DNA of 64,000 bases from Eledone cirrhosa (taxonomy: Eukaryota), in contig OZ024766.1 of the NCBI GenBank assembly GCA_964016885.1, forward strand, positions 2,604,001-2,668,000, given 5' to 3'. Below are positions 3,444 to 58,089 of this stretch, piece by piece. The notes under the pieces are model-generated. The model was not told the origin of the DNA. It made no database searches and was given only the letters and a program-made list of their open reading frames with translations. Made by a program: the position numbers and the translations under genes. Position 1 is the first letter of the stretch, and each line of letters begins with the position of its first letter.

Positions 3444-3514
3444 TATTTTATTATGTGCATTTCAAAAACAAATATCATCATGGGATGATATTTGCGTTCT
3501 CATCAGATAAAATA
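3444..3514 (-). ncRNA. Type I hammerhead ribozyme motif, family A
   Basis: Minus strand: UAUUUUAU-CUGAUGA-GAACGCAAAUAUCAUC(CCAU)GAUGAUAUUUGUUUUU-GAA-AUGCACAU-A^-AUAAAAUA. Confidence 0.8.
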
Positions 3515-3574
3515 GGGAGACATGATATGAAGCTTATTTGCATTGCTTTATTGTGCTACAATAAAACTCACCTC

Positions 3575-4435
3575 TTACATATATATACATATATATACAT
3601 ATATATACATATATACATGTATATATATATATATATATATATATATATATATATATATATATATACATATATACATGTATATATATATATGTATATATAT
3701 ATATATATGTATATATATATATATGTATATATATATATATATACATATATACATGTATATATATATATATATATGTATATATATATATATATATGTATAT
3801 ATATGTATATATATATATATATATGTATATATATGTATATATATGTATATATATGTATATATATATATATATATATATATATATATATATATATATGTAT
3901 ATATATATATATATATGTATATATATGTATATATATATATATATATGTATATATATGTATATATATATATATATATGTATATATATGTATATATATGTAT
4001 ATATATGTATATATATGTATATATATGTATATATGTATATATATATGTATATATATGTATATATATGTATATATATGTATATATATATATATATATGTAT
4101 ATATATGTATATATATATATATATATGTATATATATGTATATATATGTATATATATGTATATATATGTATATATGTGTATATATATGTATATATATGTAT
4201 ATATATGTATATATATGTATATATATGTATATATATGTATATATATGTATATATATGTATATGTATATATATATATATATATATATATATATATATATAT
4301 GTATATATATATATGTATATATACATATATGTATATATACATATATATATATATATATACATATATATATATATATATATATATATATATATATATATAT
4401 ATATATATATATATATATATATATATATATATGTA
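3575..4435. repeat. Large (TA)n/(TATG) microsatellite, representative of many (e.g. 415-900, 10530-11190, 45055-45880, 47445-48600, 49020-49860)
   Basis: Low-complexity dinucleotide tracts. Confidence 0.97.
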
Positions 4436-6520
4436 TGCTGTACCATATATATGTATTGAGTACCTTACTAGCTGTGGGTACCAACTCCCCCCCCCCCCGA
4501 CTGAACTTGGGATTCACACACATATATCCTTCTCAGCTATGTTTCAGATCTAATGAGGGGATGCGCTCCATCAGGTTTAAAATGCCCTAGATGTGTTGTA
4601 TGTCACCAGAGTGCCACTTACATATATCTAGTTCATACATACATGCATGGGACAGAACTCGGAACCTGTTTTGGTTTTAACTTAGCTATTGTTTATCATG
4701 CGGATGGTGTCCCTGAGAAATAGACTCCATGTAATCCTCATTGCTCACCTCATTATTAAATATGCCAACACTAAACTTAACTGTGCTTGTTTGCACTTAT
4801 CTTTCTGCCACATTTCTAACGCCTGCTAGAAATAGTAGCCAAATCTGCCTTAATCCACCATCACTGCTGCCTTAGAAAAAAATCATGGTGCGATAAGGGA
4901 GTCACGAGTTTTCTTTTACTTGGGAAAGGAAACAGTCATATATGGAACATCTTTGATCATAGGCCTGCTCAGGCATGACAGACCTGTGGTTAAACAACAT
5001 TTTCACGATGTATTTTGATTTTTTTCAACTTGAATATTTTTGTAATATTGTTGCATCTTTTTAACATCTTTTTTGCCTGTTTCTCACATCTTTTTCTAAT
5101 CTTTCCCACATCTTTTCACCATCTTATCGATATCTTTCTCTTCTTATTTCCATTTCGTCTCAACATCTTACTGACATTTTTCCTGCCCCATTCTCACATC
5201 TTTTTCACATCTTTCCCACATCTTATTGACATCTTTGTCATATCTGTTGGACATCTTTTCACCATCTTATCGACATATTTCTTGCCACATTCCCATATCT
5301 TTTCTTTATCTTTTCAACATCCTACTGACATCTTTCTCTTCTTATTTCCACATCTTTTTAACATCTTGTTGTTGCCTTTCCCTCATCTTTTTACAATATA
5401 TCATTCTCACATCTTTTTATCATTTTTCCTTTCAATATTCTTATTCTCACATCTTTTCAACACCTCACCCACATCTTTTCAACACTTTGACATCTTTCTC
5501 ACATCTTACTGACATCTTTCTTGCCTCATTCCTACATCTTTCTCACATCTTTTTATTATCTTTCTTTCAATATTCTTATTCCCACATCTTTTCAACACCT
5601 TTCTGACATCTTTCCCACATCTTTGTCTTATTCCCACACCTCATATTACATCATCATCACCGTTTTACGTCCATTCTTCCACGCTAGCATGGGTTAGTCT
5701 TGTCTAATTCATCTTATCTCTCTCCCTCTCTCTCTTTCTTTCCCACTCTCTCACCCACATACATTTTTACTATCTCTCTCCCTCTTGCTTTCGCTTTCCT
5801 GTCATAACCTCTCTCACCTCTCTCTCACCCACTCTCTCTCACCCACACTCTCTCTCTCACCCACACTCTCTCTCACTCTCACTCTCTCTCTCTCTCACCC
5901 ACACTCTCTCTCTCTCTCACCCACACTCTCTCTCTCTCACTCTCTCTCTCACCCACTCTCTCTCACTCTCTCTCTCTCACCCACACTCTCTCTCTCTCAC
6001 TCTCTCTATTTTTCTAAAATCACTCTCTCTCTCTTCTTATACTTCTGACCACCTCTCAACCTCGTGACCCGAACTCAACTCAACCTCGTGACCCGAACTC
6101 AACTCAACTCAACTTTGTGACTCGAATTCAACTTAACTTTGTGACCTGACCTGACCTCAACCTCAACATCGAACTCAACCTCAACTTCGCGACCCAAACT
6201 CAACCCAACCTCGCGACCCAAACTCAACCCAACCTCGCGACCCAAACTCAACCCAACCTCGCGACCCGAACTCAACTCAACTCAACTTTATGATCTCCAT
6301 TCAACCTTGCGACCCGACACGAACACAACTCAACTCAACCCAACCTCGCAACCTGAACTCAACTCAACCTCGCAACCCGAACTCAACTCAACCTCGCAAC
6401 CCGAACTCAACTCAACTCAACTCAACCTTGTGACCTGAATTGGCCTCCATTCATGTCACCGTGTGATCCAACCCTAAAACTGAAATTAAAACATGTCCTG
6501 ACCTCCACCACCACCTGCAG

Positions 6521-6693
6521 CATTTGTGAATGCCCAGGCTGCTGACCGTTGCGATGCAATCAGTTGCATCCTACGCAACATTTTGGACTGTTATCACTAC
6601 CCCCGCATCAATGAGTCGCTGGTGGTTACCATCCTGTTTCTACTGAACCACCCTAACACACGCCACTACATCAAACAGAACACAGATCTTGAG
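6521..6693 (+). CDS. RICTOR: RICTOR exon ([57 protein letters not shown])
   Basis: ctgcag| acceptor, |gtaagt donor, 173 nt, phase 1 to 0. Confidence 0.93.
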
Positions 6694-57358: not shown

Positions 57359-57550
57359 TCTATCTATATATATATAAAACTGAGGATGTGTGTGTGTGTG
57401 TGTGTGTGTGTGTGTGTGTGTGTGTGTGTTTCTGTCGGTTTATTTTCTTTACATATTGTCCAGGCATGCAGTTTTTCCACGATTAGGTCTGTTGGTGGCC
57501 CGCGTTCCCAAAAATACCTTATCCCGTGCAACGCCGGGTACCACTGCTAG
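57359..57550 (+). mobile_element. Non-autonomous Helitron-like element
   Basis: A|TC 5' start, internal (GT)n, subterminal hairpin CCCG-TGCAACGC-CGGG, ends in CTAG|T; a 5'-end copy lies on the minus strand at ~58310-58332. Confidence 0.6.
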
Positions 57551-57616
57551 TATATATATATATATATATATATATATATATATAGAGAGAGAGAGAGAGA
57601 GAGAGAGAGAGAGAGA

Positions 57617-57960
57617 GAGGCACATGGCTTAGTGGTTAGAGCATTGGCCTTGCAATCTAAAGGTTGTGAGTTCAATTCTCAGACCGGGTGGTGTGTTGTT
57701 TCCTTGAGCAAGACACTTTATTTCACATTGCTCCAGTTTACTCAGCTGTAGAAATGAGATGATAGGGACTGGGGTCCTTATCATTCCACTGCAAAGTGGT
57801 CGTGTAGGTGCCACGGCAAAAAAGCACCCAGCACTCACTGTAAATGAGGTTGGTGTTAGGAAGGGCATCCAGCTGTAGAAATCAAGCCAGAAGCAGTTCC
57901 CGTCCCACCCTTGCAAGCAGGGAAAAGCGGACGTAAAATGAAATGATGAAATGATGATGA
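57617..57960 (+). mobile_element. tRNA-derived SINE (same family)
   Basis: Near-identical to the 31557 copy. Confidence 0.87.
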
Positions 57961-58026
57961 TATATATATAAAAATATTATTCAAAATGTTAATAAATGAA
58001 AAATATTCTCATGATCAAAATATATA

Positions 58027-58089
58027 TATTTTATTATACATATTTCAAAGGTACAATGGTGTTTAAGTACATTTTCATCAGATAAAATA
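58027..58089 (-). ncRNA. Type I hammerhead ribozyme motif, family A
   Basis: Minus strand: UAUUUUAU-CUGAUGA-AAAUGUAC(UUAAACACCAUU)GUACCUUU-GAA-AUAUGUAU-A^-AUAAAAUA. Confidence 0.82.

Follow-up and report, generated by a model that had tools for sequence, protein, structure and literature searches.

A conserved and apparently undescribed helix II mismatch in dispersed hammerhead motifs of Eledone cirrhosa

We analyzed a 64,000-nucleotide stretch of the Eledone cirrhosa genome (assembly GCA_964016885.1, contig OZ024766.1, positions 2,604,001 to 2,668,000; hereafter the window, whose coordinates are used below), in which a first-pass annotation had recognized dispersed hammerhead ribozyme motifs with a mismatch at the fourth position of helix II. 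The five minus-strand motifs that it described are borne out, and all five have the common CUGAUGA and GAAA core, an 8-bp A/U helix I, and an AUA cleavage site. Helix II spans 16, 10, or 8 positions, as had been noted, and position 4 is the sole non-pair within these spans, being C.U in the 3.4-kb motif, C.C in each of the three at 37 kb, and U.C in the one at 58 kb. A 3′-half copy on the plus strand is likewise present, placed at 54792–54868. Overlooked were an inverted half-pair at 36540–36931 and two hammerheads of a separate family, family B. The features, several of which include pseudo-long terminal repeat (pLTR) sequence of a retrotransposon with an open reading frame (ORF), are as follows.

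3401..3536, minus: 5′-truncated element end (pLTR) enclosing the 3.4-kb hammerhead and terminating in (TA)n; 96% to the pLTR of the ORF-bearing L213
3444..3514, minus: type I hammerhead, lineage A1b; helix II of 16 positions, position 4 C.U
3535..3580, plus: inverted piece of the element tail, abutting the copy at 3401–3536
30952..31011, plus: family B hammerhead, 9-nt helix III, position 4 paired (copy 30914–31047)
34564..34625, minus: second family B hammerhead, 9-nt helix III, position 4 paired (copy 34528–34663)
36540..36730, minus: hammerhead 3′ half and tail, lineage A2; one arm of the inverted pair
36733..36931, plus: hammerhead 5′ half and upstream pLTR, lineage A2; cut in loop II, where it joins the triple
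36961..37025, minus: hammerhead, lineage A2a, tandem copy 3 of 3 (unit 36931–37054), position 4 C.C
37132..37196, minus: hammerhead, lineage A2a, tandem copy 2 of 3 (unit 37094–37224), position 4 C.C
37311..37375, minus: hammerhead, lineage A2a, tandem copy 1 of 3 (unit 37273–37404), position 4 C.C
54792..54868, plus: hammerhead 3′ half, 5′-truncated within helix II and flanked by (TA)n runs
58027..58089, minus: hammerhead, lineage A4 (element piece 57937–58091); position 4 U.C, a sporadic variant of C.C

The five motifs represent three independent lineages, the 37-kb copies being 98–99% identical to one reference. The units of this tandem triple are separated by (TA)n, recur with a period of 171–179 bp, and are 88–91% identical to the L207 pLTR; the 58-kb copy is 86% identical to L205. 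An assembly gap of 200 N (37650–37849) lies 250 nt from the triple and could affect the local arrangement. Helix III had been described as variable with its outer pairs kept; the usual form is an 8-nt palindrome, and the 3.4-kb copy departs from it, reading AUGCACAU where AUGCGCAU is usual for its subfamily.

The window motifs are not chance occurrences because a pattern that constrains the core and some of helix I but not helix II matches 42,855 times (21,598 + 21,257) in the 3.0-Gb genome, and its reversed control has none. Two further, non-overlapping patterns, which take other closing pairs in helix I and keep helix III at 8 nt, gave 20,219 matches (control 892) and 6,392 (control 338), and the three 8-nt-helix-III patterns together amount to ~68,000 net matches. 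Individual loci were examined among the matches listed (the first 100 per search), and genome-wide position-4 counts cover the 42,855 set, the other two patterns being represented by sampled loci. An unbiased set of 153 copies was retained from 217 after dropping 64 that were the center matches of exception-directed searches; the outer AU..AU of helix III was fixed by the patterns in this set and in the two additional searches. Because individual copies are not independent, they were also clustered into lineages, of which 27 real cluster representatives were kept and three of 30 dropped (two internally deleted, one mis-parsed). Descriptors that require a perfect helix II or a G10.1–C11.1 pair would likely miss such copies. 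Among the 150 of 330 Rfam matches listed, which were microsatellite noise, none was to a hammerhead model. A metagenome scan of 46 stretches gave none in which helices I and II both formed and no ORF match, so the evidence is confined to the E. cirrhosa genome.

Conservation of the mismatch across many copies had been named beforehand as a test, and it is conserved. Position 4 is paired in one of the 153 unbiased copies, which is internally deleted, and in none of the 27 lineages, whereas positions 2, 3, 5, 6, and 7 pair in 147, 148, 144, 145, and 143 of the 153. The lineages read CC (20), UC (3), CU (2), and CA (2) at position 4, where entropy is lower than anywhere else in helix II; all 27 are paired at position 3, in four ways (UA 11, AU 8, GC 7, GU 1). 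The distance from mismatch to core is constant across these lineages, although the span from CUGAUGA to GAAA ranges from 20 to 47 nt. Genome-wide, the 5′ base of position 4 is C in 41,088 of 42,855 matches (95.9%, by subtraction), U in 1,224, and a purine in 543. The exceptions listed are spread across many subfamilies or are indels; the U variants, to which the 58-kb copy belongs, are scattered in this sporadic way. The 3′ base is a purine in 633 matches; of the 100 listed, ∼38 (counted by eye) come from a single C.A subfamily that has amplified, and there is another, small C.A lineage. C-G occurs in 130 copies of diverse backgrounds, with no amplified lineage among the 100 matches listed. 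The mismatch claimed as invariantly pyrimidine–pyrimidine is thus held far beyond the window, but what is invariant is a 5′ C opposite a base other than G, with at least two amplified C.A lineages. We conclude that the 5′ C matters by its identity and its partner merely by not being G.

The motifs are almost certainly the 3′ ends, or pLTR hammerheads, of 5′-truncated Hydra-clade Penelope-like elements (PLEs). Penelope-like identity is indicated by the 5′ truncation, inverted partners, and optional tail of the copies. All 30 of the unbiased copies followed outward run into a microsatellite, mostly (TA)n; they end 32–66 nt from the cleavage site in 21 and 129–150 nt in nine, and an inverted core lies at most 1.5 kb upstream in five. 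The same two preferred ends are seen in public contigs (six runs of unrecorded kind, possibly including the source sample, used for element ends only), and the two classes fit the two reverse transcriptase (RT) start sites of the anole element (PMC11167929). Upstream of the hammerhead, L063 has an 821-codon open frame, and pLTR hammerheads stand on both sides of an RT–endonuclease ORF in L069, L207, L293, and L295, at spacings of 3,940, 4,034, 3,747, and 4,097 nt. A structure model of the ORF based on a 23-sequence alignment (predicted local distance difference test score (pLDDT) of 82.3, compared with 33.3 from a single sequence) has telomerase RT (TERT) as its best fold matches; Pfam and PDB sequence searches with the ORF gave no significant match. 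YRDD and GIY-YIG-like motifs can be read by eye. The ORF carries Hydra-clade marks, with DKT in place of DKG (L063, L069) and a CxCX5C linker, and in a by-eye comparison it follows the published Hydra alignment motif by motif. Between the GIY-YIG halves we read, by eye and without alignment to the published figure, a single Cys, which bears on the absence of CCHH as a criterion. Of the proposal of a functional ribozyme lineage, then, conservation of structure stands and a free-standing lineage does not, the carrier being a known kind of retrotransposon.

Two ORF links were rejected, those of L251, where a microsatellite intervenes, and L199, where an inversion junction does; L199, L200, L204, and L211 were kept in the RT tree and not counted as ORF-linked. 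No ORF was found in nine stretches upstream of family D or for the exact subfamily of the window triple. In several A lineages (L031, L035, L042, L048, L251), a donor-like GGTAYGT precedes the hammerhead by ∼15–40 nt, with an acceptor-like motif downstream; an intron reading was set aside rather than refuted, there being no GT..AG joint in the public contigs and families C and D lacking the AG. The tail of families A, B, C, and D opens with ACTC or GCTC and later reads GAG(T/C)(G/A)CT, a possible stem, at these sites:

L063, 6760–6795: tail motif
L207, 4955–4985: tail motif
window, 36625–36650, minus: tail motif

The short 3′ end falls just before this motif, which is a candidate RT-binding or start-site element, and a similar motif can be seen by eye in the published Hydra-2_Amil consensus. 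Further Hydra-like families with intact ORFs occur at L246 (C1:437.20 Mb), L248, and L249, one of them in tandem at a 3,531-bp period; our scan gave no canonical hammerhead in them, and L248 has a hammerhead-like segment near 5408–5450 with CAGAAGA replacing CUGANGA.

In the RT tree, the ORF-linked mismatch lineages all fall within a single clade (99/97), with family B outside it; RT identity is 50–61% between the main branches of this clade and 37–42% to family B. The mismatch therefore has a single origin and long retention, not repeated origins. It could, in principle, be one ancestral mismatch kept pyrimidine–pyrimidine by transitions, without selection; many helix changes are in fact transitions, and a few sources gave most of the genomic copies. 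This possibility has already been largely refuted, and we consider it the least probable of those discussed here. Between helix I groups, identity is 0.82/0.74 at position 4, versus near-random values of 0.29/0.29 for position 3 and 0.31 for the flank upstream; positions 2, 3, and 7 show transversion-type swaps; and the RTs differ by 40–50%. Because the neighbors are saturated while the mismatch is retained, its retention is best read as selection, and it is very probable that the mismatch is under selection in the source elements. Family B, a sister family, serves as a natural control: its 7,737 genomic matches have a 9-nt helix III with a loose first pair, position 4 is paired in 29 of 30 copies, and the RT to which it is linked (L288, L289) is of the same type but more distant. 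A 6-nt-helix-III hammerhead family (L021:1909, L046, L083, L208), whose 5′ helix II arm is common with family C, reads C-G at the mismatch site and is a natural paired counterpart. In another hammerhead family (L069:8261, L257:7397, L290:4006), helix II is long and helix III is a 10-nt palindrome.

The remainder of the fold is that of a type I hammerhead, with a CUGANGA/GAAA/UH core, three helices, and an open helix I. That structure is kept by compensatory change, as had been proposed, is supported by an alignment of 25 hand-picked real copies: the covariation score is 0.695 versus 0.304 when shuffled (by a shuffle that ignores relatedness of the rows) and at most 0.21 when slid, with 101 versus 33 two-sided cells. 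Helix I had been described as fixed, which is so inside one subgroup; related lineages have other sequences in helix I, which still pair and covary, and across lineages helix I changes in both sequence and length. Its first five pairs vary in sequence across the clade and mostly covary, the first three being required to pair by our filter. Helix II, said to change freely, does not: position 4 is fixed, and positions 5–6 mostly hold a purine/pyrimidine pattern.

The constraint might instead act on the cDNA strand: there, close to where reverse transcription begins, a DNA hairpin would present the site as G facing G, A, or T. With DNA parameters, antisense helix II does fold better in 18 of 27 lineages, versus six for the sense strand. 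With RNA parameters, however, the strands are tied, 14 versus 12, and helix II has 25 G-U versus four C.A cells on the sense strand, an excess that favors sense RNA as the constrained strand, because a G-U pair turns into a mismatch once copied into cDNA. It is also the sense strand that carries the catalytic core and the palindrome of helix III. A constraint on the cDNA is thus very improbable.

A mismatch could also merely weaken the three core-adjacent pairs, keeping the ribozyme off until a dimer or chaperone acts, with base identity irrelevant. In computed folds of helix II alone, the core-proximal pairs are often open, and C, U, and A all occur as the 3′ base, both as this idea would have it. 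But U.U or U.C would destabilize too, and C-to-T, with 1,224 copies, is the most frequent of the sporadic changes, yet nearly every lineage has C as its 5′ base; the three of 27 lineages with U have only single copies as representatives. Simple tuning of stability seems improbable, if less so than an effect on the cDNA.

Helix III bears on how the ribozymes would work. It is fully palindromic, with all four pairs, in 25 of the 27 lineages, and its central two bases are complementary in 25 of 27, in four pair types. These bases cannot pair intramolecularly, so their complementarity is meaningful only between two molecules or two repeats. Closing helix III in a monomer costs ∼2–5 kcal/mol, whereas a self-duplex gains 2–10 kcal/mol in 25 of 27 lineages. 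The ribozymes are therefore likely to cleave as dimers, to judge by these computed energies and the palindrome.

What the conserved C does is less clear. The account that we favor, although we would rate it somewhat short of an even chance, is that these are Hydra-clade pLTR ends that likely cleave as dimers and in which the unpaired helix II C is likely selected as a contact for the RT–endonuclease protein of the element. Reverse transcription would start at two sites 3′ of the ribozyme, so that even the shortest copies retain it. Two ribozymes on one tandem transcript would pair via helix III, giving active cores that cut after AUA, and the open C, at its constant distance from the core, would be read by a protein that aids ribozyme folding. 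Protein recognition is favored because the trait follows the RT clade, because a related ribozyme is protein-assisted (the anole Penelope hammerhead cleaves only upon protein addition; PMC11167929), and because neither helix I nor the 10-nt flanks of the 25-row alignment yielded an invariant partner base for the C. That the protein of the element is the reader is a tentative proposal.

Ranking close behind is an RNA tertiary contact, as the first-pass annotation had suggested. Here the open C (or else the narrowed C.Y step) would dock with the helix I backbone or, within the 8-bp dimer, with the partner ribozyme, and so replace the loop 1–loop 2 contact of canonical hammerheads. The constant distance of the C from the core is equally suited to such a contact; the C sits about where loop 2 begins in canonical type I motifs, whose helix II has 4 bp (PMC4209133); and the mismatch accompanies the 8-nt helix III, whereas the 9-nt family B and the 6-nt family pair at this site. 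The lack of an invariant partner and the variability of helix I count against it, weakly, because a backbone contact would be invisible to an alignment. We regard an RNA contact as rather unlikely. More generally, and still doubtfully, the 8-bp obligate dimer helix and the fixed open C might together replace the loop–loop contact in ∼68,000 copies, the C acting as a switch for cleavage through either the protein or the partner ribozyme.

Several observations weigh against selection for a protein contact that supports cleavage. First, the initial pair of helix II is weak, with G-C in four of 27 lineages (position 2 likewise has G-C in four of 27), in contrast to the G10.1–C11.1 conserved among published PLE hammerheads, and activity may therefore be low. 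Second, family B has amplified to its 7,737 copies without the mismatch, and the single origin noted above means that the trait was not acquired repeatedly. Third, C-G copies are seen as pairs of inverted twins stemming from a single insertion (for example, C1:271387496 and 271387674), which suggests that such RNA can be copied at least once. Fourth, in the anole element, RNA 5′ of ORF position +20 is dispensable for insertion, and catalytic mutants still inserted (PMC11167929). The better folding of the antisense strand under DNA parameters belongs here as well. Finally, the class is defined by patterns that fix an 8-nt helix III, other lengths lying outside the search. Under protein recognition or dimer docking alike, the position-4 C is a specific nucleotide to examine for activation. 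The clade amounts to a natural mutagenesis in which nearly all base pairs have been swapped and one non-core base has been kept open, and it bears on why PLEs retain hammerheads that cleave poorly alone, a question left open in the literature as far as it was consulted (PMC4209133, PMC11167929).

Elsewhere in the window, a 6.9-kb, nearly perfect (99% matches) (CACT)n array occupies 23600–30532, and two minisatellites, with units of 72 and 70 bp, each occur at two distant sites, the 72-bp pair in opposite orientations:

6757–7333 and 19931–20844: minisatellite pair
9635–10218 and 32524–33391: minisatellite pair

Several known systems come close to ours. The Hydra clade comprises PLEs with a C-terminal EN (EN+), including Hydra-1_Obim of Octopus bimaculoides (Craig et al. 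2021, PMC8557442). Like them, the elements here have DKT, the CxCX5C linker, a C-terminal GIY-YIG, (TA)n targets, a type I hammerhead near the 3′ end, inverted truncated partners, and an optional tail. They differ in that the units are 3.7–4.1 kb and not generally <3 kb (a typical rather than strict size), the tail is ∼85–90 nt and not 30–40 bp, and the family reaches ∼68,000 matches over three patterns. By eye, none of the 26 Hydra hammerhead rows of File S2 shows a position-4 mismatch in the listed stem II (PMC8557442).

The element of Anolis carolinensis, Poseidon, shares two RT start sites that define the tail, AT-rich targets, and a pLTR hammerhead (PMC11167929). It belongs, however, to a different PLE clade, and its ORF starts inside the hammerhead, whereas the ORFs here start ∼230–270 nt downstream; protein-assisted cleavage is shown for Poseidon and would be by inference here. 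Animal non-LTR retrozymes (PMC7229834; bioRxiv 10.64898/2026.07.22.740005) resemble our system in that their type I hammerheads are arranged as short tandem repeats, like the 171–179-bp triple, and in their high copy number. But they are non-coding ∼300-bp tandem units with a canonical type I hammerhead, whereas the present family occurs at dispersed sites and is linked to autonomous ORFs; its one tandem arrangement is the window triple, whose units are split by (TA)n and lack canonical loop contacts. A retrozyme-like array does occur in this genome (L096:487–1107, L255:29–1584), and its 310–311-bp units each contain a small type I hammerhead whose helix III has 6 nt.

The minimal hammerheads of metazoan PLEs (Cervera and de la Pena 2014, PMC4209133; PMC6765202) are similar in their pLTR type I fold, long helix II without the loop 1–loop 2 motif, short palindromic helix III with a dimer model, and many variable families per genome with compensatory changes. 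Unlike those, our motifs lack a conserved G10.1–C11.1 after one extra nucleotide, and helix III is 8 nt and fully palindromic; the conserved internal C.H mismatch is not a feature of the Fig. S3 consensus or rows as extracted (PMC4209133). We found no description of the position-4 mismatch in the literature surveyed on PLE hammerheads, outside which lie Lunse et al. and Arkhipova et al. 2017, which may bear on it. The element and the ribozyme are thus of a known kind, and the conserved mismatch within them is well supported and apparently undescribed.

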